A DNA stretch of 37,394 bases from an uncultured Bacilli bacterium (GTDB lineage Bacteria > Bacillota_I > Bacilli_A > RF39 > UBA660): positions 1-37,394 of the forward strand of contig CANQHT010000001.1 in NCBI GenBank assembly GCA_947623705.1, written 5' to 3'. Below the pieces are notes generated by a model that worked only from the letters and a program-made list of their open reading frames with translations, had not been told where the DNA came from and made no database searches. Shown in pieces: positions 12,761-27,587 of the stretch. Each line of letters begins with the position of its first letter. Position 1 is the first letter of the stretch. A program made the translations under genes and the position numbers.

Positions 12761-12787
12761 ATGATACTTTAATTCTTCTTTTTCTTT

Positions 12788-12796
12788 TGGTATACT
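12788..12796 (+). promoter_or_regulatory. extended -10 promoter element just inside the left end of the element
   Basis: TGgTATACT, 35 nt upstream of the LysR gene start. Confidence 0.4.
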
Positions 12797-12830
12797 ATAT
12801 TTAGTTATTTACTTTGAAGGGAGTGGCTCT

Positions 12831-13712
12831 ATGAATAATTTTAACTTAAATTTATTTAAATATTTTTATTATGTCGTTTATTATAATGGCTTTACTAATG
12901 CTTCAAAAAATTTAAATATTGCTCAATCATCATTAAGTTATAATATAAAGCAATTAGAATTACAATTGGATAAAACATTAATTATTAGAGATAATAAAAA
13001 TTTTGAATTAACGGAAGATGGAAATAATTTATATGAAAATTTAAAATCAGCTTTTAGTATTTTGAATCAAAATTTGGAACAATTCGATAATCAAAATACT
13101 ATGGAATTAACTATTGGTACTAGACATTATCTATCAGATTTCATTTTTAAAGATTCAATCGTGGAATTTATTAATACCTATCCTAATATTCATATCAATA
13201 TAAAATTATATTCTAAATTAGATGTTAAAAAATATGAAGATGAGTATGACATTTTAATTGATTATGAAGACTATACTAATTTAATTAATACTAATAATAA
13301 AGATTTATTATGTACTTTAAATAATACTTTTGTTTCCGGTAAAGAACTATCAAAAAATTATGAATCAGTTAAGTCTATTAAAGAACTTGGAAATACAAGA
13401 TTAATATCAATGTGTCCAAATAAAAGAAATGGTAAATTTCAAAAAATGTGCTTTGAAAATGGTATCTTATTTGAAAATATTATTTCAGTTAATGATAGTA
13501 TAATATCTAAAAAGTTAGTAAAGAATAATTTGGGATTATGTTTTGTTAATAGAGAGTATTTTAAAGAAGAAATAGCTAATGGCGAAGTAAAAGAAATTAA
13601 AGTAAAAGAGCAACTTTTTAATGATAAAGTATATATTGTCTATAAAAATAGTAATAATAATATAAATAAATTTATTAAGATATTAAAAAAGCAATATGAG
13701 GAGGAATTATGA
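12831..13712 (+). CDS. LysR family transcriptional regulator
   Basis: The N-terminal HTH FTNASKNLNIAQSSLSYNIKQLE and a ~290-aa length are typical of LTTRs. Confidence 0.9.
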   Translation: MNNFNLNLFKYFYYVVYYNGFTNASKNLNIAQSSLSYNIKQLELQLDKTLIIRDNKNFELTEDGNNLYENLKSAFSILNQNLEQFDNQNTMELTIGTRHYLSDFIFKDSIVEFINTYPNIHINIKLYSKLDVKKYEDEYDILIDYEDYTNLINTNNKDLLCTLNNTFVSGKELSKNYESVKSIKELGNTRLISMCPNKRNGKFQKMCFENGILFENIISVNDSIISKKLVKNNLGLCFVNREYFKEEIANGEVKEIKVKEQLFNDKVYIVYKNSNNNINKFIKILKKQYEEEL

Positions 13713-14227
13713 TGAGTAAGTGGGATTTATATGATGCTAAATTTAATAACACTGGAATTGTTATAAATGATACTGATGAAATACCTGATGGTAAGTATCA
13801 TTATTCTATAAATGCTTGGATATTAAATTCTAAAAAGCAATTATTATTAATAAGAAATACTTTAAATTATAATATTCATTATCCTGGTTTTTGGAGTAGT
13901 ATAAATGGCAATGTTTTAAGTGGAGAAAATTCAAATGCGACATGTATTAAAGCTATTAATAATAAGATAGGAATAAAAATCTTAGATTCGGAAATGCAAA
14001 CTATAGATAAAAAATTACGAGATCCTTATCATTATATTTATGAAACCTTTATTGTAAATAAAGATATTGATTTAAATACAATATGTTTTAGAGATAATAC
14101 TGCTGTTCAAGCTAAATGGGTAGATTTAAAAGAATTATATAATATGATTGAAAATGGGGAAATTGCTTGGGTTTTAATTCCAAGAATAGAAGAATATGTA
14201 ATACCATTAATGAAAGAGACTAATTGA
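13709..14227 (+). CDS. NUDIX-fold protein with a degenerate Nudix box
   Basis: GNVLSGENSNATCIKAINNKIGI keeps the Gx5E...GI scaffold. RE is replaced by KA and EE by NK. Its start overlaps the LysR stop (ATGATGA). Confidence 0.6.
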   Translation: MMSKWDLYDAKFNNTGIVINDTDEIPDGKYHYSINAWILNSKKQLLLIRNTLNYNIHYPGFWSSINGNVLSGENSNATCIKAINNKIGIKILDSEMQTIDKKLRDPYHYIYETFIVNKDIDLNTICFRDNTAVQAKWVDLKELYNMIENGEIAWVLIPRIEEYVIPLMKETN

Positions 14228-14245
14228 TTAGATTAGTCTTTTATT
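14217..14245 (+). terminator. intrinsic terminator after the LysR/NUDIX-like pair
   Basis: AGACTAAT-tgattag-ATTAGTCT, then TTTATT. Confidence 0.55.
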
Positions 14246-14252
14246 ATTAGAT

Positions 14253-14306
14253 TTTTCTATGTTTTCTATCGAAAATTTGAATGATTAAATTACACTTTAC
14301 TATTAT
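14253..14306 (+). promoter_or_regulatory. candidate operator plus promoter of the 13-gene operon
   Basis: Tandem TTTTCTAT (14253-14260, 14262-14269) followed by CGAAAA gives a TTTTC-N13-GAAAA dyad. Then TTGAAT (14277-14282), 18 nt, TATTAT (14301-14306). Confidence 0.35.
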
Positions 14307-14334
14307 ATAATATTCATTAGTTAGGGGGGATAGA

Positions 14335-15855
14335 ATGCAAAATATGCCGGATTCATTAAAAAGAATAATTGAAAAAAATCCAAACTTGGAACATCATGTT
14401 AGAGGATTACCAAGTTTAGGAGAAAATTTAATTAGTGGAGCATTTTCGAAAGAAGTAAGTAAGATATATGATGCCTTTGGATTATATGGCAATGAATTAT
14501 ATGCTCTTGAAAATGCCAGAATTAAAAATATTTCCTCACGATCACTTGGTGGGGGTAGTCCTATGCGGACTATAGCATTTCCTTTATGTAAGGAAGCATT
14601 AATTAATATCATCAGTAGTGATGACCTTTCAGATTATCCTTTGGCTGCTGGTGAGGAAGAAGCTAGAAAAATAATTGTAGAATATCTAAAGCAAGAAGGA
14701 TTTAAAAATAATACGGATATATCGGAAGACAATATTATCTTTACTGTATCAACAACCCATGCTTTTAATATTATTTCAAGTATTATTGCTAGACCTCATG
14801 ATGTAATATTAATGACAGGTCCCAATTATGGTTTATTCACTTTTGTTCCTGAACGGATTTCGGGAGCAACTGTTGAAATATTACCTTTGTCTAAAGAAGA
14901 TAATTGGTATGTTAATCCTCAAAAATTATCGCAAAGAATTGATGAAATTAATGCTAGTTTAAAAACTAAATATGGTGAATCTTTGGAATACACGCCTAAA
15001 GTTGTGGCCTTTTTAAATGAAAATCCCCATAATCCTTTAGGAAAAGTAATGAATGAGAATAATAAAGAAATACTTGAAGGTATTGGTAATGTATGCTTAT
15101 CAAAAGGAGTCTTTGTTATCGATGATTTAATATATCGAGATTTAACTTATGATAGAGATAATTTAGCCAAACCGATGGCCTCTTATGAAAAATTTTTTGA
15201 TAATACAATAACATTAACTGGTTTATCAAAATCCTATGGTTTAGCATCAATTAGATCTGGTATGGTAGTAGCAAATGAAATAATAATTAGAGCCATTCGA
15301 AATAAGATTTTTCAAACAATGGATTCTTCACCAGTACTCCAAGGTAGAGCTTTAGCCGGGGCCTTTAATGCCTCAGAAAGAAGAAAAAGAGAATATGATA
15401 ACTACTTTAATCCTATTATTGAAGAATATAAATATCGTTTAGAATTATTAAAAGCTTTAATTAATGGATTAGATTTTATTGAGGATATTAATCTAAGAAA
15501 AACAATTGAAATTGATATAAGAAATTATGCTTTGGGTTATGACATAAAACAAATATTAGATGGAATACCAAATGTTGATTTTGTAGATGGTACATTACCA
15601 GATTCGGGATTTTTTGAAATGTTAGATTTTACCCAATTGAAAAATAAAGTAGCGGAAAATGGTCGTATAATCAGTAATGAAAAAGAATTACTTAAATATA
15701 TGTATGAACAAGAGAAAATTAAACTTATTTTAGGCCAATCAATATCATGGCCAAACGAAGAACAACTTATTGGAAGAGTTACAACAGCTTTGGAAAGAGA
15801 AGATTTAGTTGAACATTTTAGTGCCATGAATAGATGTTTAAGAAAGTTAAGGTAA
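14335..15855 (+). CDS. PLP-dependent aminotransferase, class I/II
   Basis: NPHNPLGKV, and LSKSYGLASIRSG (PLP lysine motif SKxxxxxGxRxG). Confidence 0.9.
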   Translation: MQNMPDSLKRIIEKNPNLEHHVRGLPSLGENLISGAFSKEVSKIYDAFGLYGNELYALENARIKNISSRSLGGGSPMRTIAFPLCKEALINIISSDDLSDYPLAAGEEEARKIIVEYLKQEGFKNNTDISEDNIIFTVSTTHAFNIISSIIARPHDVILMTGPNYGLFTFVPERISGATVEILPLSKEDNWYVNPQKLSQRIDEINASLKTKYGESLEYTPKVVAFLNENPHNPLGKVMNENNKEILEGIGNVCLSKGVFVIDDLIYRDLTYDRDNLAKPMASYEKFFDNTITLTGLSKSYGLASIRSGMVVANEIIIRAIRNKIFQTMDSSPVLQGRALAGAFNASERRKREYDNYFNPIIEEYKYRLELLKALINGLDFIEDINLRKTIEIDIRNYALGYDIKQILDGIPNVDFVDGTLPDSGFFEMLDFTQLKNKVAENGRIISNEKELLKYMYEQEKIKLILGQSISWPNEEQLIGRVTTALEREDLVEHFSAMNRCLRKLR

Positions 15856-16754
15856 TGATGAAAAAAGTAGGAATTGTCTCTTGTGATAAGTGGCTAAATA
15901 AATTAGAAGAAGATATTAATTTAAAAAAAGCCTTAAATAGTCTTGGAATAGATGCGAAGATTATATCTTGGCAACAACCATTAGATGAAAAATATGATTT
16001 ATTAGTTTTAAAATCAGTATGGGGATATCAGAATTATTATAAAGAATTCAAAGAATGGCTTTTATGTGTTAAGAATAATAATATTCCCTTAGTTAATGAT
16101 GTGGATATGGTTTTAAATAATATTATGAAGGATAAACAATTTAATATTTTAAAAAAAAATAATATTGATTTTATAGATACTTTGTTTATGCAACAATCTG
16201 AATTATTAAGGGAAAACATAGAGGATATATTAGATGATAAATTATATGTTTTTAAACCAACAATATCTGGTAGTGGGGAAAATACTTATCTAGTAACAAA
16301 TTCTAATACTAAATCTATCCCAAATACAATTCAAAAAGAAGATATAATTAAAGTATATAATAAAGTATTAGAAGAAAATAGGGATTGTAAGATAATGATT
16401 CAACCATTTATTGAAGAAATAAATAATGGCGAATATTCGTGTATCTTTATCGAGGGAGAACTAACCCATACCATGTTAAGATTTCCCAATATATTTCATG
16501 AAAAAAGAAGGCCTTATTTAGTTAATAATGTTCCCGATAGGATTATAGAACTTGCGAAAAGTGTTGAAAGAATTCAAGATTTTAATAATTATTTATATAT
16601 GCGTGTTGATATGGTTTTAGTTAATGGTAAGGCTAAAATAATGGAAGTTGAATTAGCTGATCCAGATTTACTATTTAAGTATATTGAAAATGAGAGAGTT
16701 AGAGATCAAGGACTAAAATTACTATCAAAAAGTATAGTTAGGAGAATAAAATAA
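15855..16754 (+). CDS. ATP-grasp domain protein
   Basis: YVFKPTISGSGENTYLV, IMIQPFIEE...EYSCIFIEGE, MRVDMVL...IMEVELADP. The start overlaps the upstream stop (TAATG). Confidence 0.7.
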   Translation: MMKKVGIVSCDKWLNKLEEDINLKKALNSLGIDAKIISWQQPLDEKYDLLVLKSVWGYQNYYKEFKEWLLCVKNNNIPLVNDVDMVLNNIMKDKQFNILKKNNIDFIDTLFMQQSELLRENIEDILDDKLYVFKPTISGSGENTYLVTNSNTKSIPNTIQKEDIIKVYNKVLEENRDCKIMIQPFIEEINNGEYSCIFIEGELTHTMLRFPNIFHEKRRPYLVNNVPDRIIELAKSVERIQDFNNYLYMRVDMVLVNGKAKIMEVELADPDLLFKYIENERVRDQGLKLLSKSIVRRIK

Positions 16755-18004
16755 TGAAAACTTTATTATATTTTGAGGAATATGAATCAGATCTTTCAAA
16801 AGCCCTAAGAAAAAGAAAAGACATTAACGTTTTATTTATTAGAACTGATAAAAATATAAGATTTTTTAGTAAGGAGTATTTAGAAAAATATAAAGATTAT
16901 TATCAATTCTTCTATGATAATGATTTTGATATGGAAATTTATAAATTTAAAAATTGGCTAAGTCATAAAAAGATTAAAATAGATTATTTTTTAAATGATT
17001 CTGAATTTTATATGGAGTATTCAAATAAAATTGCTGAGAGACTTGGATTAGAATGTTTGAGTTCTGAACAAGTAAAATGGGTCCGAGATAAAGTTGCAAT
17101 GAAAGATAAATTTAATCAAATAGGATTAAGAACAGTTGATTATCAAATTGTTACTTCTAAAAATGATATTCTAAAATTTATGAAAAAACACATTGGAGAA
17201 CCGATTATATTTAAACCAAGAGATTTAATGAATAGTAAAAATGTATTTAAGATTGATTCTCCAAGCGATTTGGATTATATAGATTTAAACTTAGAGTGTG
17301 GAAATTTTATGGTTGAATCATATTGCTATAATCAGGAATGGTCAATAGAAAGCCTAATTCAAGATGGTATAGTACTTGACTCTTACGTAACTTATATACC
17401 AAATAGAACTCTATGGGCAGCAATAGATAATAGATTAAATTGTCATATGACAGTTCCTAAAATACCTAAATACTTTAAGTTTATTCCAAAAAATTTTATT
17501 CAAAAAATAGTGAATGGTATGAATTTAAAAAATGGGGCAATGACAATAGAGGTATTTATAGATGAAGAAGGAAATGTGATGCCTAGTGAATTAGGATGGC
17601 GTTTACCTGGATGTCAAGCAACCAAAAATCACAGTAGATCCTATGGCTTTGATATGTGCGATTCATTGATTGATATAGCAATTCATAAACCAGTAAGTTT
17701 AAAATATAGGAATCCCATTGTTTGTGTAGGTGACTTATATTTACCAAATAAAGAAGGCCTAATTACGGAAATCACTTCGCTGGATGAATTATTAAATATG
17801 GATGGAGTTATTGATGGTGAGATGCTTATAAAAAAAGGGGATATCCAAAAAAAACGAAGAGTAGGTAATGATGCCTCTGGTTGGGTTCAAGTTGTAGGGG
17901 AAAATGAGTTTGATACTTTACAAAAAATGCAAAGAATATATGATAATTTTACAATAGAGGTTGCAAATGATATAGGAGGCAAAAAATATGTTAAAAAATT
18001 ATAA
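16754..18004 (+). CDS. ATP-grasp carboxylate-amine ligase-like protein
   Basis: VRDKVAMKDKF...IIFKPRDLMNSKNV...MVESY...TIEVFIDEEGNVMPSELGWRLPG. Confidence 0.75.
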   Translation: MKTLLYFEEYESDLSKALRKRKDINVLFIRTDKNIRFFSKEYLEKYKDYYQFFYDNDFDMEIYKFKNWLSHKKIKIDYFLNDSEFYMEYSNKIAERLGLECLSSEQVKWVRDKVAMKDKFNQIGLRTVDYQIVTSKNDILKFMKKHIGEPIIFKPRDLMNSKNVFKIDSPSDLDYIDLNLECGNFMVESYCYNQEWSIESLIQDGIVLDSYVTYIPNRTLWAAIDNRLNCHMTVPKIPKYFKFIPKNFIQKIVNGMNLKNGAMTIEVFIDEEGNVMPSELGWRLPGCQATKNHSRSYGFDMCDSLIDIAIHKPVSLKYRNPIVCVGDLYLPNKEGLITEITSLDELLNMDGVIDGEMLIKKGDIQKKRRVGNDASGWVQVVGENEFDTLQKMQRIYDNFTIEVANDIGGKKYVKKL

Positions 18005-18779
18005 ACAATACTTTTTAATTTTATTATTTACGATATTACTTACAATGGGTTGTTCCAATAAGTTAAATGTTATTAATAATAAAGATGATTTAAATAATAA
18101 AAATATTGGTATTTATACTGGTTCAGAGTATGATACTATTGCGGAAAATAATATCTTAGATGTGAGTATTTCATATTATAATAGTTATAGTGATCAAATA
18201 TCAGCTTTGAAGTCGGGTAAAATAGATGGTTTTTTAACAGATGAACCATTAGCTAAAGAAATAATCAAGGAAAATAGTAATCTAAAAATATTAGATGAAA
18301 AACTTACTGAAGATAGTTATGCATTTGCCATTAATCCTAATAAACAAGATTTACAAAAGGCAATTAATGAAGTGTTAAATACTATGAAACAAAATGGTAA
18401 ATTACAAGAATTAGAAGAAAAATGGATGGGAAATGAGGAAAGTAAAAAAGAATTAGATAATTATAATTATGATGCTTCCAAAGGCACTATTAAATTTGCT
18501 ACTGTATCAGGTTCTGCCCCATTTGCCTATATGAAAAATAATAAGATTGTTGGATATGATATTGATGTAATAAATTATATTTGTAAAGAATTAGGTTATA
18601 AGCTTGAAGTTATAGAAATGGCATTTGAGGGTATAATTCCAGCCTTAAAATCTGGGAAAGTTGATGTTTCAGGTTGTTCGATTATTGTAACGGAAGAAAG
18701 AAAAAAATCAGTTTTATTTTCAGAACCGGATTATACTGGGGGAATTGTAGTAGTTGTTAGAGGAAAAAATGAAAAATAA
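17988..18779 (+). CDS. lipoprotein, family-3 (polar amino acid) ABC substrate-binding protein with apparently permuted domain order
   Basis: Lipobox LLTMGC. The GlnH-like N-half motifs (VGYDIDV...IIPALKSGKVDVS...TEERKK..FSEPDY) lie at the C-terminus. The C-half motifs (IGIYTGSEYD...SGKIDGFLTDEP...KW) lie at the N-terminus. Confidence 0.8.
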   Translation: MLKNYKQYFLILLFTILLTMGCSNKLNVINNKDDLNNKNIGIYTGSEYDTIAENNILDVSISYYNSYSDQISALKSGKIDGFLTDEPLAKEIIKENSNLKILDEKLTEDSYAFAINPNKQDLQKAINEVLNTMKQNGKLQELEEKWMGNEESKKELDNYNYDASKGTIKFATVSGSAPFAYMKNNKIVGYDIDVINYICKELGYKLEVIEMAFEGIIPALKSGKVDVSGCSIIVTEERKKSVLFSEPDYTGGIVVVVRGKNEK

Positions 18780-19545
18780 AACTAAGTTTATAAAGTTCTT
18801 CTTTATATTGTTTCTCATAATAATAGTTATAGTTATTAGTAAAGATGTAATTATAGATTTTTTAATTAATGTTAGAAATAGTTTTAATCGAACAATAATT
18901 TTAGAAAAAAGATATATTTTATTTTTAAATGGATTAAAATCAACAATATTAATTTCATTCTTAGCAATTATATTTGGTACATTATTAGGATTTATTTTAT
19001 TCTTGTTACAAAAATCAAAGATCAAAATTTTAAGTAAATTTTCGTATATGATAGTACGATTTTTACAAGGAGTTCCCGTAACAGTTTTATTATTAACATT
19101 TTATTTTGGAATTTTTGGAAATATAAATATAGCACCTATTGTAGTAGCAATAATAGTATTTTCAATATACTTTTCTGCATATGTTTCCGAGATTATTAAA
19201 GGGGCCTTTTTATCAATTAATAGAACCCAAATTGATTCGGCTTATGCTTTAGGTTTTACTAAACTTCAAACAGTTAGATATATAATTATCCCTCAAGTAC
19301 TTTCGTATATAATCCCCGTTTATAAAAATGAAAGTGTTTCCATAATAAAATCCACTTCTATAGCTGGTTATATATCTGTAATGGAACTAACTAAAGCAAG
19401 TGATATCATAAGAAATAGAACTTATGAAGCATTCTTTCCATTAATATTTACAGCGTTTATATATTTTATAATTTGTTATATATTTTGTAAAATATTGGAT
19501 TTAGTATATAAGAAAATTAATCCAAAGGTGGTGAAGAATTTATGA
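18769..19545 (+). CDS. amino acid ABC transporter permease (His/Glu/Gln/Arg/opine family)
   Basis: Multi-TM protein with SAYALGFTKLQTVRYIIIPQ (EAA-loop region). The ATG at 18769 follows an AGAGGA RBS. Confidence 0.85.
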   Translation: MKNKTKFIKFFFILFLIIIVIVISKDVIIDFLINVRNSFNRTIILEKRYILFLNGLKSTILISFLAIIFGTLLGFILFLLQKSKIKILSKFSYMIVRFLQGVPVTVLLLTFYFGIFGNINIAPIVVAIIVFSIYFSAYVSEIIKGAFLSINRTQIDSAYALGFTKLQTVRYIIIPQVLSYIIPVYKNESVSIIKSTSIAGYISVMELTKASDIIRNRTYEAFFPLIFTAFIYFIICYIFCKILDLVYKKINPKVVKNL

Positions 19546-20213
19546 AAAAAGATTGCATATTAGAGTTGGAAAATGTTGCCAAATACTATGGCAATGAATT
19601 GGTATTTAATAATATTAATTTAAAGATAAAAAAAGGAGAAGTAATTTCTTTAGTAGGAAAAAGTGGGAGTGGTAAGAGTACTTTATTAAAGTGTATAAAT
19701 CGCTTAGAAGATATCAATGCGGGTAAAATAAAGTTTAAAGGAAGGGATATTAAAGAAATATCTCTTGTAGAATTAAGACAAAAAATTGGGATAGTATTTC
19801 AAGATTATAATTTATTTGAACATTTAACTGTCTTAGATAATCTTACAATAGGTTTAATTAAAATAAAAGGTTATTCTAAAAAAGAGAGTATTCATAAAGC
19901 TTTAAATGTTTTAAAAAAAGTGGATTTGGTTGATAAAAAGGATAAATATCCCGATGAATTATCGGGAGGACAAAAACAAAGAGTTGCCATTGCTAGAACT
20001 CTATTAATGGAACCAGATATTATTTTATTAGATGAACCTACAAGTGCCTTAGATAAAGAGATGAAGAATAGTGTATTAGAATTAATTAGTGAACTTGTTG
20101 ATGAAGATATGACTTTAATTGTAGTATCACATGAAGATGAATTTATTAATAAAGTGTCAGATAGAATATTTAGTTTTAATAAACATACTTTATTGGAGAA
20201 GAAAAATGGATAG
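19542..20213 (+). CDS. amino acid ABC transporter ATP-binding protein
   Basis: Walker A GKSGSGKST, signature LSGGQKQRVAIAR, Walker B ILLDEPTSALD. Confidence 0.95.
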   Translation: MKKDCILELENVAKYYGNELVFNNINLKIKKGEVISLVGKSGSGKSTLLKCINRLEDINAGKIKFKGRDIKEISLVELRQKIGIVFQDYNLFEHLTVLDNLTIGLIKIKGYSKKESIHKALNVLKKVDLVDKKDKYPDELSGGQKQRVAIARTLLMEPDIILLDEPTSALDKEMKNSVLELISELVDEDMTLIVVSHEDEFINKVSDRIFSFNKHTLLEKKNG

Positions 20214-21090
20214 TATTAATAGATACAAGATTATAAAAAAATTCCCATTAGGTGGTTCATCCGTTCAAAAATACATTGTTGAAAAAGATAATAAAATATT
20301 CTTGTTAAGATTATATGATATTAGATTTATGGATAGTAGATATAAAGCTTTTAATAATATTAGAATTTTGCATAATAATGGCATAGCTGTTCCTGAAATA
20401 TATGATTTTGGTGTGATGTCGGATAATAAACATGGTTATGCTATTATGGATTGGCTTGCTGGAGTTTCTTTAGATAATTTATTATTTGATGATAGTTTAA
20501 TTGACAAATATGGAAAAATAGTGGCAAATGAGTTATTTAAAATGCATAATATAGATCCAAATGAAAATATAAATATATATGATAAGTTTATAAAGTCGTT
20601 TAATAAGAAAATAAATAAATTGAAAGACATAGGTATAGATTATACATCTTCTATTCTAGAATCATTTGTTTTAGATAATAGTATGGTTTTAAAATGTTTA
20701 GATACAAGTATTATTCATGGGGATTTTCATCCGGGAAATATAGTAGTAAATGATGGTAAAATTTGCTTTATAGATTTAGATGTATGCCAGAATAACTTTG
20801 CTTGGATAGATTTATCTACAAATTCTTGTAATTTAGATTATCCTAAGTTTTATACAACTTTAATAAATGAATACTTTAATAATAATGTTCCAGATAATTT
20901 TTGGTTAATATATAATCTATATGGTTCGTTATATTGCTTAGATTATATATTATATTGTAATAGAACGGCTAATAAAACACTTGAAGATGGTATTACAGTT
21001 GTTAAGAAATTTTTAGATTATTCAGATGAATTTAGCTCATTAAAACCTAAGTGGTATGATAATAAAAAAGTTTTAAGAAAGGAAAAATAG
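20206..21090 (+). CDS. aminoglycoside/choline-kinase-fold phosphotransferase (APH family)
   Basis: IIHGDFHPGNIVV...CFIDLD. The ATG at 20206 follows a GGAGAAG RBS. Confidence 0.8.
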   Translation: MDSINRYKIIKKFPLGGSSVQKYIVEKDNKIFLLRLYDIRFMDSRYKAFNNIRILHNNGIAVPEIYDFGVMSDNKHGYAIMDWLAGVSLDNLLFDDSLIDKYGKIVANELFKMHNIDPNENINIYDKFIKSFNKKINKLKDIGIDYTSSILESFVLDNSMVLKCLDTSIIHGDFHPGNIVVNDGKICFIDLDVCQNNFAWIDLSTNSCNLDYPKFYTTLINEYFNNNVPDNFWLIYNLYGSLYCLDYILYCNRTANKTLEDGITVVKKFLDYSDEFSSLKPKWYDNKKVLRKEK

Positions 21091-21092
21091 GT

Positions 21093-22019
21093 ATGAGAGA
21101 ATTAAAAAAATATGAAGGGGATAGAGTTATATTAATGGCTTGTTCAAATTGTAATGTTGCATGTAAGCATTGCTATATAGGATATACGGGAAATAGGACT
21201 CCAGAAGAATTAAAAAAATTAGCGGAGTATTATAAAAATAAATATAAATTAGTAAGAATAGATGGTGCTGAACCACTTGTTGACTTGGGATATTTACCTT
21301 CTTACAAAATAGTTGGCCAAGATTGGATTATGACAAATGGGCTTAGAATATTTCGGGAACCAAAGATAATAGACTTATTGCTAGAAAATGGCATTAGTAA
21401 TGTATTTATGTCTTATCATTTTGAAATACAAGATAGTTTAAATGGTATTACTAACGAGATGTTAAATGCCGTTATTAGAATGTTAAGAGAAAAAGGACTT
21501 AGAGTTGTTTTAATGACAACAATTACAAATAAGAATGCCAAAGATACTTTGCAAATATGTGAGAATGCTTATGAACTAGGGGCATCGGGAATTGAATTTA
21601 ACAAAATATTTATTCAAGGAAGAGCTAAAAACTTAACTGATGTAAGATTAGTAAAAGAAGACTATGATAGTTTCTTTACACAATTAAAACAAGCTAGAGA
21701 CAAATATGATATAAATGATTTTGAAGTAAGAAGAAGTGGAACTTTTGGCTGTGATACGGTTAATGAACCAAATAATTTCAAATGTAGTGCTGGTGTAAAA
21801 AAAGTTTGTATTACACCTGATGATAAAGTTTATGGATGTACATGTATATGTAAACCTGGTTATGAAGTTGGTGAAATAATTGATGGTGAAATATATATGT
21901 ATTCCGATTTTGAAAATGATCGCACTTGGTGTTTAGGTGATAAAATGGGTGAATTAGGTATAGAAAATATCCAAGATCTTAATAATCCAAAAATAAAGAG
22001 TTTAGTTAGAAAGATTTAA
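21093..22019 (+). CDS. radical SAM protein with C-terminal auxiliary Cys cluster (SPASM/twitch-like)
   Basis: CNVACKHC (CX3CX2C) near the N-terminus. C-terminal FGCD...FKCSAG...VCITPDDKVYGCTCICKPG. Confidence 0.88.
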   Translation: MRELKKYEGDRVILMACSNCNVACKHCYIGYTGNRTPEELKKLAEYYKNKYKLVRIDGAEPLVDLGYLPSYKIVGQDWIMTNGLRIFREPKIIDLLLENGISNVFMSYHFEIQDSLNGITNEMLNAVIRMLREKGLRVVLMTTITNKNAKDTLQICENAYELGASGIEFNKIFIQGRAKNLTDVRLVKEDYDSFFTQLKQARDKYDINDFEVRRSGTFGCDTVNEPNNFKCSAGVKKVCITPDDKVYGCTCICKPGYEVGEIIDGEIYMYSDFENDRTWCLGDKMGELGIENIQDLNNPKIKSLVRKI

Positions 22020-22020
22020 A

Positions 22021-22788
22021 ATGAATAGGGATGAATTAAATATTCTACTAAAAAAGTACTATTCTTTTAATAACGTAGTTAAAAGTAAATTAAATATAGA
22101 TGATAAACAAAATTTTGATTTAGTAATTATTTCACCAACATGGAAACCACATTTTGTGTTTAATGAAGATTATAATGTTGAAAATTTAAAAACCGGAAGT
22201 ACGGCAACATATATTTTATATTATAATAATAAAAAAATATTGTTTATTAAGACTGGAAAAGGAGCCCCAAATGTGTTTGATAATTTATTACTTTTACGAA
22301 ATATTGATTCACCATATATATTTTTAGGTTCTGCTGGCTCTTTGAGTGAAAATGTTCATGAAGGAGATATTTTTATACCAGATTATTCTATTTCAGGAGA
22401 TGGAGCATCGCTATATTTTGAAAAGAAAATAGATACTACAAATTTTTTTAATAAAATATATTTTAGCGCTGAAATTAAGCAATATATTACGAGTATTTTG
22501 AAAAATATTAATTTTTCATATAAAAATGGTGGAGTTTATTCAACTGATTCATTAATAGGTGAATATTATCACCTTCAAGAAATAATGAAATTTGATGTTT
22601 CTTGTATTGAACAAGAAACTGCTGCATTTGGTAAATGTATGAAAATTATGGAAAAAGAAGGTTTGCCAATTTTAGTAATATCTGATTCATTAATTTGTGG
22701 TACAAACTATTATGAGCCAATGGAAAACAAGCAAGAATATCTTTTAACTAGAACAAAAAAATTACAAAAAATAATTAGTAGATTTTAG
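22021..22788 (+). CDS. nucleoside phosphorylase/nucleosidase superfamily (PNP_UDP_1) protein
   Basis: GSAGSL, ISGDGAS and IEQETAA, in the order seen in DeoD/Udp/MtnN-type enzymes. Confidence 0.7.
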   Translation: MNRDELNILLKKYYSFNNVVKSKLNIDDKQNFDLVIISPTWKPHFVFNEDYNVENLKTGSTATYILYYNNKKILFIKTGKGAPNVFDNLLLLRNIDSPYIFLGSAGSLSENVHEGDIFIPDYSISGDGASLYFEKKIDTTNFFNKIYFSAEIKQYITSILKNINFSYKNGGVYSTDSLIGEYYHLQEIMKFDVSCIEQETAAFGKCMKIMEKEGLPILVISDSLICGTNYYEPMENKQEYLLTRTKKLQKIISRF

Positions 22789-22797
22789 GGGGAAGTT

Positions 22798-23364
22798 ATG
22801 AAATATATTATAATGTCAGATGGTAAAGGAACAAGGTGGAATAATTACCTTGGAATTACAAAACAAGAAGTTATTATTAACAATGAAAGACTGATTGATA
22901 GAACTGTTAGAATGATTTTAGAAAGAACAACAAATGATGTATATATACTGTCAAGTAATCAAAATCATGATAGTAAATATGCCAAAAGAATAGTTTCAAA
23001 ATATGATGATTATTTTCACAAAAGGTATGCTTACGACTTTCTTGATGATTCAACAACTTATTTATATGGAGACACTTTTTATGATGAAAAAACAATTGAT
23101 ATAATTATAAAAGACATGGTTGAAAATATAAGTTTTTATGGTAACGAATATGCTATTATTGCTGTAAAAGCAAATAATTATCAATTATTAAAAAGGGTAA
23201 TAGATAATGCCAATAATCATTGCCATTCACTTTACCATTTATTTGATGAATTTGAAAATTATAGAACTTTTGTTAATGTAGGAGATGGGTTTGTCAATAT
23301 AAATACTCCAAATGATTATATTAATTTAATAAAAGATACTAAAAAATTAGTATTAAAAAGGTGA
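22798..23364 (+). CDS. nucleotidyltransferase (MobA/LicC-like NTP-transferase fold)
   Basis: N-terminal IIMSDGKGTRW (GxGxR nucleotide-binding loop) and a ~190-aa length. Confidence 0.6.
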   Translation: MKYIIMSDGKGTRWNNYLGITKQEVIINNERLIDRTVRMILERTTNDVYILSSNQNHDSKYAKRIVSKYDDYFHKRYAYDFLDDSTTYLYGDTFYDEKTIDIIIKDMVENISFYGNEYAIIAVKANNYQLLKRVIDNANNHCHSLYHLFDEFENYRTFVNVGDGFVNINTPNDYINLIKDTKKLVLKR

Positions 23365-23368
23365 TTTT

Positions 23369-24274
23369 ATGATAAATGCAATGATAATACAAATAATTGA
23401 AAAAAATATAAATGAAAAAGTAATAAGTATAAAGCAAATAAAATTTGGTTATAGTAGAATGGTTTTTATGATTAATGATAGATATATTTTGAAAATTGTT
23501 ATTAATTCTACTAAAGATAATGATACAATAAAAGAAGTTAAATTTTTATTAAATAATGCTAATTTAGAATTTATTCCGAAGGTAATATTTAGTGATTTTA
23601 CAAAAAAGTCTTTTCCCTATGTATTTTATTTAGAAAGAAAAATTAATGGAGAGTCATTATTATTAAAGTGGCCATTATTAAAGGAAAGTGAAAAACAACA
23701 AATATTAGTTCAATTATTGGAAAAGTTAGAAAAATTACATTCTCTAAGTTATAATTTACGCTTTGATAATGATTGTTTAGATGGGTTATTAAAAGAATAT
23801 GATAATTACTTAAATAAAATTATAGAATCTAATATTTTAAATAAAGAAAAAATATATTATTTATATGAATTAAAAGATATAATTTCAAAATTATTTGAAG
23901 GAGCAACCACTGGATTAATTCATGGAGATTTGCATTTTAATAATATTTTAGTTAATGATAATAATGAGATATCGATAATTGATTTTGAAAAAGTAAAACA
24001 ATCATTTGTTGTAAGAGAATTAGATCCTATAAATCGTATGGCTAGAAATCCTAACTCCTTCAATACTAATTCAAAAATTATACTAAATGATTATGATTTT
24101 CGAAACATTATGAATTTTATAAAAAATAATTTTGAAACAATAAATAATGATAAATTTGATGATAGATTATTATTTTTCGATTGTTTAAACTCATTAATGT
24201 GGCTAGCAAAATATCCTAAATATGAGTTATATAATGATATTCTTTTTAACAAAAGTAGAAAATTATTAAGATAG
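23369..24274 (+). CDS. second APH-fold phosphotransferase
   Basis: LIHGDLHFNNILV...SIIDFE. Divergent from the first kinase. Confidence 0.8.
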   Translation: MINAMIIQIIEKNINEKVISIKQIKFGYSRMVFMINDRYILKIVINSTKDNDTIKEVKFLLNNANLEFIPKVIFSDFTKKSFPYVFYLERKINGESLLLKWPLLKESEKQQILVQLLEKLEKLHSLSYNLRFDNDCLDGLLKEYDNYLNKIIESNILNKEKIYYLYELKDIISKLFEGATTGLIHGDLHFNNILVNDNNEISIIDFEKVKQSFVVRELDPINRMARNPNSFNTNSKIILNDYDFRNIMNFIKNNFETINNDKFDDRLLFFDCLNSLMWLAKYPKYELYNDILFNKSRKLLR

Positions 24275-24315
24275 TGTGATACAATATAGTTGATTAAAGA
24301 ATGGAGTGTAGTTGT

Positions 24316-24843
24316 ATGAAAGAAATATTATATAATTATGATAATTTAAAATTAGAAGATATTGATGAGGTGGTTACTAGAACAAAAGGTTTGATTATTA
24401 ATAGCAATAATGAAATAACTCTAGGATATTCTCATAAAACTTATCAATTTCCCGGAGGCCATTTAGAGGATGGTGAAAGTTTAGAAGAATGTTTATTAAG
24501 AGAAATAGAAGAAGAAACTGGAATAGAAATAAAAGATGCTAAATTAAAACCATTTGAAAAAATTACATACTATAGTAAAAATTATCATGGATCTGGTAAA
24601 AATAGAAAAAATGATATCTATTATTATATTATTAATACTGATGCTAAATTTGATATGAATAATTCCAAGTTAGATGAATGGGAAAAAGATGGCGATTTTA
24701 CTGTTAAAACTTTTAAAATTGAAAATGTTGAACAAGTTTTAATAGATAGCATACCCGATAATCCAATAAACAAGGTGATTGTTGAAGAAATGTTGGACAT
24801 TTTTAAAGAATATAACAAAATAATGAATATGGATAAAAATTAA
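24316..24843 (+). CDS. NUDIX hydrolase (canonical Nudix box)
   Basis: GGHLEDGESLEECLLREIEEETGIE. Confidence 0.9.
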   Translation: MKEILYNYDNLKLEDIDEVVTRTKGLIINSNNEITLGYSHKTYQFPGGHLEDGESLEECLLREIEEETGIEIKDAKLKPFEKITYYSKNYHGSGKNRKNDIYYYIINTDAKFDMNNSKLDEWEKDGDFTVKTFKIENVEQVLIDSIPDNPINKVIVEEMLDIFKEYNKIMNMDKN

Positions 24844-24844
24844 T

Positions 24845-25627
24845 ATGAAGTATTTAATTGCAATTGATAGCGATGGGACATTAAGACATTCTAATGGATA
24901 TATTTCTGATAAAACAAAAGAAATTATAAAAAAAGTTGTAGATAGGGGAAATACTGTTGTTATTTGCACGGCACGACCTAGATATTATACATTAAAGATT
25001 TCCAATGAAGTAGGTTTAAATGAATATTTAATATCATCTAATGGTACGGAAGTTTATGACAACATTAATAAAAAAAATATTTATTGTAAATATTTACCAA
25101 AAGAAGAATGTAAAATAATATATGAAGATGCAAAAAATCTTGGGCTTAGAGTTATGTTCGTAACAGAAAACACGGAATATGTAACCATGTTTACTAGAAA
25201 TAATTCTCAAATTTTATTAGATGATAATAATTTTGAAAAATTATTAAAAAAAGATATTAAGCAAATTATGATTATTAGCAAATCCAAAGAATTAGTTAAA
25301 AAATATAAGTCATTAATTGAACAAAAATCTAATTTATACGTTGTTGATTCATCAAGAGAAGACAAAGAAGAATTGTGGTTTAGTGTAATATGTTCTAATT
25401 CATCAAAAGGCGATTCTTTAAAATTTTTAGCAGAGTACCTAGATATTCCTATAAAAAATACTATAGCAATTGGTAATGATAACAATGATATATCGATGAT
25501 TGATATTGCTGGTTTGGGAGTGGCCGTAGCCAATGCAACTGCTGAGTTAAAAAAGCATGCTGATTATATTACTAAAAGTAATGATGAAGATGGGGTTGCA
25601 GTTTTTCTTGAAACATTGATAAAATAG
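24845..25627 (+). CDS. HAD-IIB (Cof-type) phosphatase
   Basis: IAIDSDGTL (DxDxT) and GNDNNDISM. Confidence 0.9.
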   Translation: MKYLIAIDSDGTLRHSNGYISDKTKEIIKKVVDRGNTVVICTARPRYYTLKISNEVGLNEYLISSNGTEVYDNINKKNIYCKYLPKEECKIIYEDAKNLGLRVMFVTENTEYVTMFTRNNSQILLDDNNFEKLLKKDIKQIMIISKSKELVKKYKSLIEQKSNLYVVDSSREDKEELWFSVICSNSSKGDSLKFLAEYLDIPIKNTIAIGNDNNDISMIDIAGLGVAVANATAELKKHADYITKSNDEDGVAVFLETLIK

Positions 25628-25640
25628 GAAATTATTTTTT

Positions 25641-25669
25641 AGAACTTATTGTCTTAAGTTCTTTTTTTG
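25641..25669 (+). terminator. intrinsic terminator at the end of the 13-gene operon
   Basis: AGAACTTA-ttgtct-TAAGTTCT, then T7. Confidence 0.75.
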
Positions 25670-25709
25670 TTTTTGGAATAATAAACTTAAAAAGAAAGGA
25701 CAAAGTAAT

Positions 25710-25916
25710 ATGGAAAATATAGATAAAGTACCAGCTAAAATAATCGAAAGAGAAATAAGTATTAAATTACTAGCCTATTTAAAAGAGAAAAATACTATTG
25801 ATGAGGGAATGTATAATTTTTGTATTAGTAAATTAATAAAAAAGCAAGAATTAGAAAAAAATAAAATTAATGCCGATTATATAAAAAATTCAGATAATTA
25901 TAAAATCTTAAATTAG
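25710..25916 (+). CDS. small hypothetical protein upstream of the recombinase
   Basis: 68-aa ORF with an AAAGGA RBS, 9 nt before the recombinase start. No recognised motif. Confidence 0.5.
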   Translation: MENIDKVPAKIIEREISIKLLAYLKEKNTIDEGMYNFCISKLIKKQELEKNKINADYIKNSDNYKILN

Positions 25917-25925
25917 GGAATCTTT

Positions 25926-27587
25926 ATGGACTTATATACTGTTAGAAATAATATTATGCAAGGTGTACCATTACAAGAATTAAATTTAAGAGTTTGTTTT
26001 TATGCTCGAGTATCAACTGATAAAGATGAACAATTACATTCTTTATCTAATCAAATATCTTTCTTTAATGATTATATTAATAAAGTACCAAATTGGAAAT
26101 TTATTGGATCTTATATTGATGAAGGAATATCCGGGACACAAGTTAAGAAACGGGAAGAATTTTTAAGAATGATTGAAGATGCTAAAAAACATAAATTTGA
26201 TTTGATACTAACAAAAGAAATATCTAGATTTTCTAGAAGTACTTTAGATAGTATTATGTATACCCAAGAGCTTTTAGCTAATGGAGTAGGAGTATATTTT
26301 TTAAATGATAATATTAATACGATATTACCGGATTCGGAATTAAGACTGACAATGATGTCTTCAATTGCCCAAGATGAAGTAAGAAGACTTTCGGAAAGAG
26401 TTGCTTTTGGGATGAAGAGAAGCATTGATAATGGCGTAGTATTAGGTTGTTCAAATATTTATGGTTATGTAAAAGATAATGGAAAATTAGTAATTGATGA
26501 AGAACAAGCAAAAATGATTAAAATAATATTTGATCGGTATGCAAATACCAATGATGGGTTATCTAAAGTATCAAAACACTTATATAGTTTAGGTTATAAA
26601 AGTCGAACTGGTAAAAGAATTGATCCTACAATACTTACAAGAATTATCGAAAATCCAAAATATAAAGGTTATTATTGTGGACATAAATCAAAAGTCTTAG
26701 ATTATCGTACTAAACAAAAGAAAAAGTTAAATGAATCGGAGTGGGTAATGTATAAAGATGAAGAGTCAGTTCCTCCTATAGTATCTGAAGAATTATGGAA
26801 CATAGCTAATATTAAATTAAAACAAAGACAAGATAGTTTTACTAATAGAGTTGTTAATAAGCTGGTTTTTCAAAATAGATATCCTTACTCTGGAAAAATA
26901 TATTGTGGTTGTCACAAGGTAACTTATCATCGTTCAAGTGCAGGAAAAAGAAAAAATAATCCTGTTTGGGAATGTCAAATATATCGCAAAGAAAGTTTAA
27001 AAGGTTGTTCTAATCCAAGGATTTTTGAAAGAGAATTAGATATTATATTTAAAGATATGTTTAATAAATTATTTAAAAGAAGAAATAATATTTTTAATGA
27101 AATATTGAGTGAATGTAAAAACTATTTAGAAACTAATAATAATGCTATGGAAATAAAAAATTTAGAATCAAAGATATTAGTTTTAAATAATAAAAAAGAT
27201 AAATTATTAGAACTAGTTATGGAAGAATACTTATCTAAAGATGATTATCAAAGACAAGTTTATTTAATAAATAACAATTTAAAAATATATCAAAATAAAT
27301 TAGATAAATTAAAAAGTAATAAAAAAGATAAAAATTATATTGTGAATAAAATTAAAGAAATCAATAATGTTTTAGAAAATTGTTTAGATGATCCGGAATG
27401 TTATAGTAATATATTTAATGCACTAATTGATAGAATAATTGTTTATAAAAAAGAAGACAAGGAAATTAAATTAGATATTTATATTAAGACAGGAGAATGT
27501 ATATCTACGACTTCTTTTAATTTAGGTAAAAAGTTTCATTTATTAGACACCGATACAACAAATTACCGCGGTATCAGCCGTTATTAA
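25926..27587 (+). CDS. large serine recombinase
   Basis: CFYARVSTDKDEQ..SLSNQ (catalytic Ser region), TKEISRFSRS, the recombinase domain, a Cys-rich zinc ribbon (CGCH...WECQ) and a long coiled-coil C-terminus. Confidence 0.95.
   Translation: MDLYTVRNNIMQGVPLQELNLRVCFYARVSTDKDEQLHSLSNQISFFNDYINKVPNWKFIGSYIDEGISGTQVKKREEFLRMIEDAKKHKFDLILTKEISRFSRSTLDSIMYTQELLANGVGVYFLNDNINTILPDSELRLTMMSSIAQDEVRRLSERVAFGMKRSIDNGVVLGCSNIYGYVKDNGKLVIDEEQAKMIKIIFDRYANTNDGLSKVSKHLYSLGYKSRTGKRIDPTILTRIIENPKYKGYYCGHKSKVLDYRTKQKKKLNESEWVMYKDEESVPPIVSEELWNIANIKLKQRQDSFTNRVVNKLVFQNRYPYSGKIYCGCHKVTYHRSSAGKRKNNPVWECQIYRKESLKGCSNPRIFERELDIIFKDMFNKLFKRRNNIFNEILSECKNYLETNNNAMEIKNLESKILVLNNKKDKLLELVMEEYLSKDDYQRQVYLINNNLKIYQNKLDKLKSNKKDKNYIVNKIKEINNVLENCLDDPECYSNIFNALIDRIIVYKKEDKEIKLDIYIKTGECISTTSFNLGKKFHLLDTDTTNYRGISRY

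Follow-up and report, generated by a model that had tools for sequence, protein, structure and literature searches.

A spoVD-splitting element of uncultured gut Bacilli carries a recurrent operon combining two ATP-grasp ligases, a radical SAM enzyme and phosphate-handling enzymes

The sequence analysed here, referred to as the window, is a stretch of 37,394 nucleotides from contig CANQHT010000001.1 (assembly GCA_947623705.1) of an uncultured Bacilli bacterium, with a GC content of about 25% and with its genes nearly all on the plus strand. Open reading frame (ORF) calling identified 13 consecutive plus-strand ORFs at positions 14335-25627. These genes, together with two genes that precede them (viz. 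those for a LysR-family regulator and a NUDIX-fold protein), form one unit, which is the cargo of a recombinase-bearing element inserted in the gene spoVD and of which an ordered core is found in other uncultured Bacilli. The gene content of this unit, its distribution and the type of product that it may specify are described below.

Gene content and organisation of the operon

The features of the unit, in their order along the window, are as follows.

12831-13712, plus strand: LysR-family regulator (HTH_1 and LysR_substrate domains), located 5' of the cluster in most loci
13709-14227, plus strand: NUDIX-fold protein with a degenerate Nudix box (Pfam NUDIX, 4.5e-7); ATGA overlap with the LysR gene
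14214-14252, plus strand: terminator-like hairpin closing the LysR-NUDIX unit (12-bp stem at 14214-14242, -11.9 kcal/mol, z = -4.1, then a U-rich run)
14259-14311, plus strand: conserved promoter/operator of the 13-gene operon (alignment upstream of the aminotransferase gene in 10 divergent loci)
14335-15855, plus strand: class-I pyridoxal phosphate (PLP) aminotransferase-fold enzyme, 506 aa (Aminotran_1_2, 2e-27)
15855-16754, plus strand: DcsG-like ATP-grasp ligase, 299 aa (NCBIfam DcsG, 6.6e-18; precomputed Pfam family DcsG_N)
16754-18004, plus strand: L-amino-acid-ligase-type ATP-grasp protein, 416 aa (ATP-grasp_4 and LAL_C2)
17988-18779, plus strand: substrate-binding lipoprotein of a polar-amino-acid ABC importer (SBP_bac_3, 5e-36)
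18769-19545, plus strand: permease of the ABC importer (BPD_transp_1, 3e-17)
19542-20213, plus strand: ATPase of the ABC importer (ABC_tran, 9.5e-42)
20206-21090, plus strand: APH-fold small-molecule kinase 1 (APH, 1.7e-19; HGDxxxxN and DLD motifs present)
21093-22019, plus strand: radical SAM enzyme with a C-terminal auxiliary-cluster (twitch/SPASM-like) domain (Radical_SAM, 1.4e-8)
22021-22788, plus strand: PNP/UDP-family phosphorylase or nucleosidase, accessory (PNP_UDP_1, 1.4e-15)
22798-23364, plus strand: small sugar- or alcohol-phosphate nucleotidylyltransferase, 188 aa, accessory (GxGTRW motif; AlphaFold fold match)
23369-24274, plus strand: APH-fold small-molecule kinase 2 (APH, 1.4e-13)
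24316-24843, plus strand: NUDIX hydrolase with intact catalytic box (NUDIX, 5e-14; canonical box GGHLEDGESLEECLLREIEEETGI; longest ORF from 24301)
24845-25627, plus strand: Cof-type HAD-IIB phosphatase (Hydrolase_3, 1e-57; TIGR00099, 170 bits against a cut-off of 137 bits)
25641-25674, plus strand: terminator-like hairpin and U-run at the operon end (8-bp stem at 25641-25662, -7.7 kcal/mol, z = -2.9, then U7)

The folds of the block proteins were assigned by means of Pfam and NCBIfam profiles, PDB sequence searches and, for two of the proteins, AlphaFold models, and the results agree with all 13 fold assignments of a preliminary description of this DNA, that of the nucleotidyltransferase by way of its AlphaFold model. 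The overlapping or nearly abutting arrangement noted in that description is likewise seen in the distances between successive genes which, when the starts are set to those of homologues, are -1, -1, -17, -11, -4, -8, +2, +1, +9, +4, +41 (or +26) and +1 nt, the largest gap being that 5' of the NUDIX gene (+26 with the start at 24301). For each start within the block, a GGAGG-like Shine-Dalgarno sequence is located inside the preceding gene. As had also been stated, the ORF and Pfam scan of the block revealed no nonribosomal peptide synthetase or polyketide synthase, no glycosyltransferase, no ORF of precursor-peptide size and no phage or conjugation gene.

The promoter/operator region that had been proposed 5' of the block is supported by the alignment of the 10 divergent loci, in which the motifs ATCGAA (14268-14273), TGAAT (14278-14282) and TATAAT (14306-14311) are invariant and the DNA around them is variable, although a promoter consensus scan, being uninformative in DNA of 25% GC, performed no better than chance (136 sites versus 126 expected). 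The -35 position relative to the TATAAT motif is poor, and this layout fits an activator-dependent promoter, which may be served by the adjacent LysR protein. The leader (14253-14334) is unstructured (z = 0.1; fold no better than that of shuffled sequences), and an Rfam scan of the entire window found no riboswitch, no T-box and no match in the leader. At the other end of the operon, the terminator that had been described as strong is present as a hairpin with a U-run, but it is a plausible terminator of modest rather than high strength: it is not picked up by a consensus terminator scanner, and the hairpin at 14214-14242 is the stronger of the two. The limits of the unit also require extension, as the 13 genes stand but the upstream LysR and degenerate NUDIX genes belong to the same unit. 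The box of this NUDIX-fold protein (G-x5-E-x7-KAINNKIG) is devoid of the REUxEE glutamates, the protein is conserved together with LysR, and it may serve as a ligand-binding partner of the regulator rather than as a hydrolase.

Of the enzymes in the block, the aminotransferase has its best PDB matches among the aspartate, aromatic and kynurenine aminotransferases. Its NPHNPLG motif and the residues D263, Y267, S298-K299, R307 and R481 are invariant in 12 orthologues, and it is, as judged from these residues, a complete class-I enzyme in which all of the class-I catalytic residues are kept. For the first ATP-grasp ligase, DcsG is the best NCBIfam match (64.9 bits, against a cut-off of 360 bits), the Pfam GSH-S_ATP match is below its cut-off, and a PDB sequence search produced no match. 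The second ATP-grasp ligase matches in the PDB the L-amino-acid ligase 4wd3 (RizA, 3e-14) and BacD (6e-8). Both BacD and DdaF equivalog scores are far under their cut-offs, and with the BacD equivalog NF053745 (39.9 bits versus a cut-off of 850 bits) only residues 77-167 are aligned. The relation of this ligase to dipeptide synthetases of the RizA/BacD type points to biosynthesis.

The three genes that follow encode the sole transporter of the block. Of its binding lipoprotein, residues 26-150 align to the C-terminal half, and residues 161-260 to the N-terminal half, of the models for lysine/arginine/ornithine, glutamine and cystine binding proteins; the protein thus seems to be circularly permuted, and its orthologues are equal in length. 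A binding-protein-dependent importer under a LysR regulator raises the question of whether an auxotroph with a small genome uses the operon to import an amino-acid derivative and to salvage or detoxify it, with LysR sensing the compound and the importer bringing it in, and with the kinases, PNP-family enzyme, NUDIX and HAD proteins, all of them typical salvage enzymes, processing it. LysR-controlled amino-acid ABC operons with assorted enzymes exist, e.g. the ytmI operon of B. subtilis, and one of the carriers of the block is a closed genome of about 1.5 Mb (OZ006970.1). However, every variant of the cluster retains a radical SAM enzyme together with two amide ligases that consume ATP, the core contains no catabolic hydrolase, lyase, deaminase or dehydrogenase, and no NCBIfam or Pfam match to a known salvage or catabolic family reaches its cut-off. 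The conservation of the two ligases and the radical SAM enzyme argues for biosynthesis rather than catabolism, and a salvage function is considered quite unlikely.

The radical SAM enzyme and the aminotransferase are the two most conserved proteins of the block. In 21 aligned homologues of the radical SAM enzyme the residues C17, C20, C24 and C27 (CxxxCxxC being C20/C24/C27) as well as C231, C249 and C280 are invariant, and the invariance of C17, C231, C249 and C280 confirms the predicted auxiliary-cluster domain that the preliminary description had recognised. The family is narrow, with 87 homologues in 5.8 billion proteins, nearly all of them unnamed and from gut metagenomes or metagenome-assembled genomes (MAGs). 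Its AlphaFold model (pLDDT 90) matches known structures with TM-scores (TM) of 0.55-0.66, viz. the peptide maturases SkfB, SuiB, PqqE, EpeE and anSME and, among others, DesII, viperin, MoaA, BlsE and AbmM. DesII, viperin, MoaA and BlsE act on nucleotides or nucleotide-sugars. Searches of plasmid, phage and IMG/VR collections with this protein returned only generic radical SAM/SPASM matches of less than 30% identity. Distant homologues (32-42% identity) adjoin genes for Peptidase_U32, a methyltransferase, IscS, an aminoacyl-tRNA synthetase or RelA, or are located in a glycan cluster; these contexts are heterogeneous, and they are suggestive but not decisive in regard to the substrate. In L038, L042 and similar loci (loci of the comparison across species are designated by such numbers), the neighbours of such homologues are Peptidase_U32, methyltransferases, a second radical SAM gene and a cysteine desulfurase, which suggests a housekeeping ancestor of the family, possibly one acting in RNA modification.

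The occurrence of this enzyme beside a nucleotide-kinase-like gene and a NUDIX gene recalls the kinase-associated prokaryotic viperins, and a viperin-like anti-phage system on a defence island, making a chain-terminating modified nucleotide, was for this reason considered. Viperins are found among the structural matches (TM 0.55-0.6), and one relative of the element (in L029) also carries genes for a KAP NTPase and type I restriction-modification. However, the PADLOC pVip models reached an E value of only about 3e-4, without any significant stretch, and the other genes had no match in PADLOC; viperins rank only in the middle of the structural matches (TM about 0.56); and no close relatives of the radical SAM enzyme were found in viral contigs or phage records. 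Further, viperins are not known to possess an auxiliary cluster, whereas the cysteines for it are conserved in this family, and known viperin systems offer no role for an amino-acid importer, a PLP enzyme or a pair of ATP-grasp ligases. A function of this kind is therefore highly improbable.

In both APH-fold kinases, the NUDIX hydrolase at 24316-24843 and the HAD phosphatase, the motifs are intact in the translations. No PDB match was obtained in the sequence search with APH kinase 1, while the PDB sequence matches of the radical SAM enzyme, PNP-family enzyme, APH kinase 2 and aminotransferase are all generic; those of APH kinase 2 include APH(2'') (2e-6), its orthologues showing a weak Choline_kinase match, and those of the PNP-family enzyme include DeoD-type PNP (2e-6) and MTAN (1.4e-4). 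The nucleotidyltransferase has no significant Pfam match and its best PDB sequence match is CobY (0.008). This assignment is nevertheless confirmed by structure prediction, as its AlphaFold model (pLDDT 92.6) matches RmlA, LicC, IspD, MurU, PntC and CobY at TM 0.7-0.78. Exact protein look-up and cluster membership revealed no source that names any of the proteins.

The carrier element and its recurrence in other species

The element that carries the operon and the host gene that it splits are composed of the following parts.

11492-12745, plus strand: 5' part of spoVD, the host gene split by the element (TIGR02214 spoVD_pbp positions 3-413, matched by 11492-12760)
12746-27558, plus strand: spoVD-intervening element of 14,813 bp, comprising the cargo unit, a small ORF and a large serine recombinase (TPIQ at both junctions)
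25710-25916, plus strand: 68-aa ORF just 5' of the recombinase (translation; region 78.5% identical in nucleotides to L011)
25926-27587, plus strand: large serine recombinase of the carrier (Resolvase, Recombinase and Zn_ribbon_recom domains; similar to CcrC, CcrB and XisF)
27559-28218, plus strand: 3' part of spoVD (TIGR02214 positions 432-632, matched by 27613-28218; frame from 27547, TPIQQITAVSAVINGG...)

The 5' part of spoVD ends in ...GISVTPIQ and then reads through LTVL to a stop codon within the element, and TPIQ is encoded at both junctions (12734-12745 and 27547-27558). When positions 12746-27558 are deleted in silico, the resulting protein of 637 aa is matched by the SpoVD model in one stretch (positions 3-632 of 636; 704 bits versus a cut-off of 688 bits). 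Excision of the element would thus restore spoVD, with a predicted attB in which …GTAACGCCAATTCAA directly abuts CAAATTACCGCGG…, and the 68-aa ORF is, by its position only, a candidate recombination directionality factor. The earlier proposal of one cargo operon borne by a recombinase element is in accordance with these observations. The carrier resembles skin in sigK, SPbeta in spsM and gin in gerE, each of which is likewise a large serine recombinase element in a mother-cell sporulation gene (PMC5595907, PMC4191935, PMC5025042), and it is skin-like in that its precise deletion in silico restores the split ORF. It differs from them in its target (spoVD) and in having a metabolic operon rather than prophage remnants as its cargo. 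In the open-access papers retrieved on intervening elements of sporulation genes, spoVD is not mentioned as a target; the carrier indicates that spoVD can be a target of skin-like elements and that a metabolic cargo can be borne by them.

The distribution of the operon was examined by a scan of one genome per GTDB species, which led to 54 loci, followed by tblastn searches with all of the window proteins and ORF-by-ORF comparison. An ordered core was found in about 20 species representatives in complete form and in 4 more in fragmentary form on short contigs, so that the block recurs in about 24 species-level genomes outside the one in which it was first noted. The order of the core is aminotransferase, DcsG-like ligase, L-amino-acid ligase, binding protein, permease, ATPase, kinase, radical SAM enzyme, kinase, NUDIX and HAD, and in other carriers the LysR and degenerate NUDIX genes are usually present 5' of it. 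All of the carriers are uncultured Bacilli or "Tenericutes" MAGs, from the gut of human, rabbit, goat, sheep and chicken.

The variable slot of the cluster, which in the window is occupied by the PNP-family and nucleotidyltransferase genes, contains in most other species a Thymidylate_kin/dNK-like P-loop kinase. The PNP-family gene is confined to the closest relatives and L022, and the nucleotidyltransferase, which is sometimes fused to an extra domain of 150 aa, to a minority of the loci. The L029/L030 variant has neither of the APH kinases and carries instead an AAA_28 kinase (similar to the ribosylnicotinamide kinase of NadR), a NanM-like sugar O-methyltransferase, a further P-loop kinase and two NUDIX genes. 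Two radical SAM paralogues are present in L006, and further additions among the variants are a transglutaminase-like gene, a TPMT/TehB-like methyltransferase, a YggS-like PLP protein and an MFS transporter, the latter adjoining the cluster in L024. The interchangeable accessory genes include Thymidylate_kin/dNK-like, AAA_28, MobA-like nucleotidyltransferase, PNP-family, extra NUDIX and NanM-like sugar O-methyltransferase genes. As judged from these sequences, two kinases, NUDIX and phosphatase are a constant theme, and the genes swapped in are all predicted to handle sugars, nucleosides or nucleotides.

Insertion in spoVD together with a serine recombinase is also seen in L001, L010, L011 and L020, and a spoVD remnant is located 5' of the L029 version. 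However, the operon is not always on a recombinase element, a point that the preliminary description had left to a survey of gene neighbourhoods: in L002-L005 the cluster is located between ftsQ and ftsA with no recombinase, and in L006 and several other loci it is found elsewhere, again with none. The spoVD-associated island of L029 contains genes for a KAP-family NTPase and a type I restriction-modification system (L029:448-1752 and 17389-20919), indicating that the same site collects defence genes too. The cargo DNA of the window is 85-88% identical to that of L001, L009, L010, L011, L012 and L020, whereas the identity is 67-69% for the flanking spoVD, mraY and ftsW genes and 71-78% for the recombinase. 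The DcsG-like gene shows a different pattern: the window allele shares 79% identity with the L029 type, as against only 53% with the type found in L001 and L011, although the other genes of those clusters show 83-96%; L010 and L020 have a third allele class (62-64%). The left part of the unit (LysR to DcsG-like) is 89% identical in nucleotides to L029. From these comparisons, the DcsG-like gene is a predicted recombination patch, and the ligase alleles are mosaic. Some copies contain split genes, viz. for a ligase in L001, the aminotransferase in L006 and a kinase in L005. The difference in identity between cargo and flanks, the mosaic ligase and the split genes together indicate a recombining, dispensable accessory trait, and this comparison of sequences leads us to conclude that the operon is exchanged horizontally by uncultured gut Bacilli.

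The locations of the cluster bear on the possibility that its product is a nucleotide-activated, amino-acid-decorated precursor for a cell-envelope polymer (teichoic-acid-like, or a peptidoglycan side chain), which would be used by transferases encoded elsewhere. The block is located in the division/cell-wall region in two different arrangements (inside spoVD here and at ftsQ-ftsA in L002-L005), and the radical SAM homologue of 42% identity is in a glycan cluster with GT4, PIG-L, UDP-Glc dehydrogenase and APH genes. The APH kinase 2 gene is preceded by that of a GT-A-fold nucleotidylyltransferase (22798-23364, 4 nt 5' of it) with a fold like LicC and MurU, and this pair resembles LicA/LicC or AmgK/MurU. 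In a group of Clostridia loci (L063-L067), remote nucleotidyltransferase homologues (31-40% identity) are clustered with genes for a TagF-like glycerophosphotransferase, 1-3 ATPgrasp_ST ligases and an ABC-2-type ABC transporter, and these clusters look like an uncharacterised pathway for an amino-acid-decorated, teichoic-acid-like polymer. However, a transferase that would use the nucleoside diphosphate product (LicD, or a Mur-pathway enzyme) is absent from the element, genes for a glycosyl- or phosphotransferase, a polymerase, a flippase or an exporter occur in none of the variants, and the nucleotidyltransferase is missing from most variants. Further, the NUDIX and phosphatase enzymes would destroy an activated precursor, and the other copies of the block are in unrelated genomic contexts. 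We regard a role in the cell envelope as improbable.

Relation to known pathways and proposed product

No known catabolic, salvage, defence or biosynthetic cluster was matched by the block in Pfam, NCBIfam, PADLOC, PDB, Rfam, the plasmid and phage collections or the literature, and no description of the cluster was found in the literature on combinations of ATP-grasp, radical SAM, Nudix, aminotransferase, DcsG and L-amino acid ligase, in keeping with the earlier statement that it is not a described one. The block works like amide-ligase and nucleoside-type natural-product pathways, but it is a member of none of them, as for each of the puromycin, pseudouridimycin, bacilysin, D-cycloserine and viperin systems at least one defining feature is absent.

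A likeness in logic exists to pathways of the puromycin type (puromycin, A201A and cystocin), in which a hydroxyl is oxidised and transaminated, phosphates are trimmed by a NUDIX enzyme and a monophosphatase, and an amino acid is attached by an ATP-dependent ligase; this likeness was drawn from descriptions of these pathways. Their enzymes are the Pur10 dehydrogenase, Pur4 aminotransferase, Pur7 NUDIX, Pur3 phosphatase and Pur6 ligase, and the A201A producer inactivates A201A with a phosphotransferase (PMC11641026). The block contains an intact, conserved NUDIX and a Cof-type HAD protein (also compared with Pur7 and Pur3 by description), but no dehydrogenase fold corresponding to the NAD-dependent 3'-dehydrogenase Pur10 is found among the 13 genes, the radical SAM enzyme being the only candidate oxidant, and genes for a methyltransferase, an acetyltransferase and an efflux pump are lacking. 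The block differs further in having two ATP-grasp ligases and an importer. The pseudouridimycin pathway uses the oxidase PumI/SapB, the aminotransferase PumG/SapH and two successive amide-forming steps (by the ATP-grasp PumK and then PumM), by which a dipeptide is built on the amine, with a P-loop kinase of unclear role, PumH (PMC10127198). The pair of oxidation and transamination, and the two ligases, of which PumK is ATP-grasp while in the block both are, may have counterparts here, and PumH parallels the dNK/dTMP-kinase-like gene of most variants. However, SapH/PumG is of class-III type (BioA-like) (PMC10127198), while the block enzyme is Aminotran_1_2 with no BioA-like name among the 60 listed PDB molecules; SapB requires O2; and domains of a pseudouridine synthase (PumJ), an N-hydroxylase (PumE) and a guanidinoacetate-forming/amidinotransferase enzyme (PumN) are absent from the element.

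With the pathways of bacilysin and rhizocticin, the block shares a ligase with LAL_C2 that matches both BacD and RizA and is paired with a class-I aminotransferase. Bacilysin synthesis likewise pairs a class-I aminotransferase with BacD. The block has no anticapsin or phosphonate genes, the bacilysin warhead genes (prephenate decarboxylase, isomerase and oxidoreductases) being absent from it in the Pfam scan, and it adds radical SAM, kinase, NUDIX and HAD genes. These similarities bear upon an explanation in which the product is a Trojan-horse di- or tripeptide of bacilysin or rhizocticin style, with no sugar or nucleoside in it: the radical SAM and PLP enzymes would make a non-proteinogenic, possibly phosphorylated alpha-amino-acid warhead, the ligases would cap it with ordinary amino acids, and the nucleotide-handling genes would only be housekeeping helpers, e.g. 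for disposal of 5'-deoxyadenosine or supply of nucleoside triphosphates. Besides the ligase, the aminotransferase is of the class-I alpha-amino-acid type with a conserved carboxylate-binding arginine, the importer recognises alpha-amino acids, and the PNP-family and nucleotidyltransferase genes are dispensable; MTAN-like nucleosidases of the PNP family clear the radical SAM by-product, and the PNP-family protein shows a weak MTAN match. However, in nearly all variants a nucleoside/nucleotide-kinase-like, nucleotidyltransferase or sugar-methyltransferase gene is present in addition to two conserved NUDIX genes, a large number for mere helpers; the BacD and DdaF equivalogs score far below cut-off, and BacA, BacB, BacC and BacG are all absent. 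A Trojan-horse peptide is regarded as unlikely.

The first ATP-grasp ligase is assigned to the DcsG_N family, its best NCBIfam match being the D-cycloserine synthetase DcsG. The other dcs genes encode a haem protein, an arginase, a racemase, a cysteine-synthase-like protein and an acetyltransferase, and none of these folds is found in the block. In the uridine-derived lipopeptidyl-nucleoside antibiotics, the aminoribosyl branch consists of an oxidase, an aminotransferase, a phosphorylase and a nucleotidyltransferase, an order that parallels the run of radical SAM, PNP-family and nucleotidyltransferase genes in the window. The capsule amidation module of C. jejuni comprises the PLP enzymes Cj1436/Cj1437, the amidoligase Cj1438 and the HAD phosphatase Cj1435; a phosphorylated amine made by a PLP enzyme is coupled to a carboxylate by the ATP-dependent ligase and dephosphorylated by the HAD enzyme (PMC11800397). 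That module acts on a growing polysaccharide in a capsule locus rich in glycosyltransferases, whereas the block is without glycosyltransferase or polymer machinery. Cryptic phosphorylation and dephosphorylation is known from sinefungin biosynthesis (bioRxiv 10.64898/2026.05.21.726688), but that pathway was rejected as a model since it employs a B12-dependent radical SAM enzyme and relies on PEARLs for the addition of amino acids. Pathways for F420, molybdenum cofactor, cobamide, NAD, thiamine and low-molecular-weight thiols were dropped, their signature enzymes being absent and no NCBIfam match being near its cut-off.

Based on the logic of the gene content, the explanation favoured here, to which we assign a probability of roughly 0.4, is that the operon directs the LysR-controlled biosynthesis of a small conjugate in which a (di)peptidyl moiety is amide-linked to a scaffold of the phosphorylated-sugar or nucleoside type. 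By the same logic, the probable product would be a small antimetabolite of the peptidyl-aminosugar or peptidyl-nucleoside type. In such a pathway, the ABC importer would take up a polar alpha-amino acid as building block, and the radical SAM and class-I PLP enzymes would jointly build the unusual centre of the molecule, most likely in two stages: a phosphorylated sugar, polyol or nucleoside-type compound would first be oxidised or rearranged without the use of oxygen, the radical SAM enzyme taking the place of an oxidase under anaerobic conditions, and would then be transaminated; alternatively, these two enzymes may make a non-proteinogenic amino acid. The DcsG-like and L-amino-acid-ligase-like enzymes would form two amide bonds, giving the (di)peptidyl conjugate. 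The set of kinases, NUDIX and phosphatase suggests that intermediates are phosphorylated and later dephosphorylated, and the two kinases, the intact NUDIX and the Cof-type HAD enzyme may accordingly add and subsequently remove phosphate or diphosphate groups in a cycle of cryptic phosphorylation or self-protection of the kind known from several pathways for nucleoside antibiotics. The variable slot would feed or activate the scaffold, here through the PNP-family enzyme and nucleotidyltransferase and elsewhere through the dNK/dTMP-kinase-like enzyme, the NadR-type ribosylnicotinamide-kinase-like enzyme or the sugar O-methyltransferase. The combination of amide ligation with nucleoside and phosphate chemistry, from which the preliminary description had argued, is reinforced by the accessory genes swapped in among other species, but the PNP-family and nucleotidyltransferase genes, on which it had partly drawn, are accessory and not part of the core.

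Several observations weigh against a peptidyl conjugate of this kind. The only transporter of the core is a binding-protein-dependent importer and no exporter is present on the element, an arrangement that is unusual for a secreted antibiotic and that suits an intracellular metabolite or a role in salvage at least as well. The best matches of the radical SAM enzyme, in sequence as well as structure, are peptide maturases (SkfB and YydG/EpeE), albeit at TM of only 0.55-0.66, and distant relatives of this enzyme and of the nucleotidyltransferase occur in housekeeping or cell-envelope contexts. The aminotransferase is of class I, unlike the class-III-type SapH/PumG, the one nucleoside aminotransferase with which it was compared from the literature, and the core has no glycosyltransferase or nucleoside-specific enzyme. 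As the PNP-family and nucleotidyltransferase genes are not conserved, arguments drawn from them hold for the window variant only; and as no enzyme of the block has a close characterised homologue, every substrate assignment is inferred.

A more specific proposal, which is speculative and rather unlikely, is that the operon represents the first oxygen-independent route to a peptidyl-amino-sugar or peptidyl-aminonucleoside antimetabolite, with a twitch-type radical SAM enzyme in place of an NAD- or flavin-dependent oxidase, in gut Bacilli with small genomes, and that it spreads between genera on spoVD-splitting elements that excise at sporulation. If a bioactive conjugate is indeed made, its producers, a gut lineage still without cultured members, would be the source of a new family of natural products, and the operon would clearly exemplify the movement of metabolic operons from one genus to another. 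The block further contains enzymes without characterised close relatives, viz. the twitch-type radical SAM enzyme with its class-I PLP partner, the DcsG-like ligase and the small APH-fold kinases, and the swapped ligase alleles suggest that different products may be made in different hosts. As the operon is widespread in gut metagenomes of humans and animals, its heterologous expression is a practical goal.

Neighbouring genes in the window

The order of the division and cell-wall genes around the element (6606-11464 and 28328-30441) is rearranged, with murG-murB-ftsQ followed by queH and a PcfJ-like gene (9941-11464) and then by spoVD-mraY-ftsW; a second mobile element may have left behind the PcfJ-like gene that adjoins spoVD. 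On the minus strand, at 3963-5542, a Fic-domain protein and a PBECR3-type nuclease-fold protein are encoded by the only minus-strand pair of genes in the window, in a patch where the GC skew is reversed, and this pair may be a toxin-like or defence islet.

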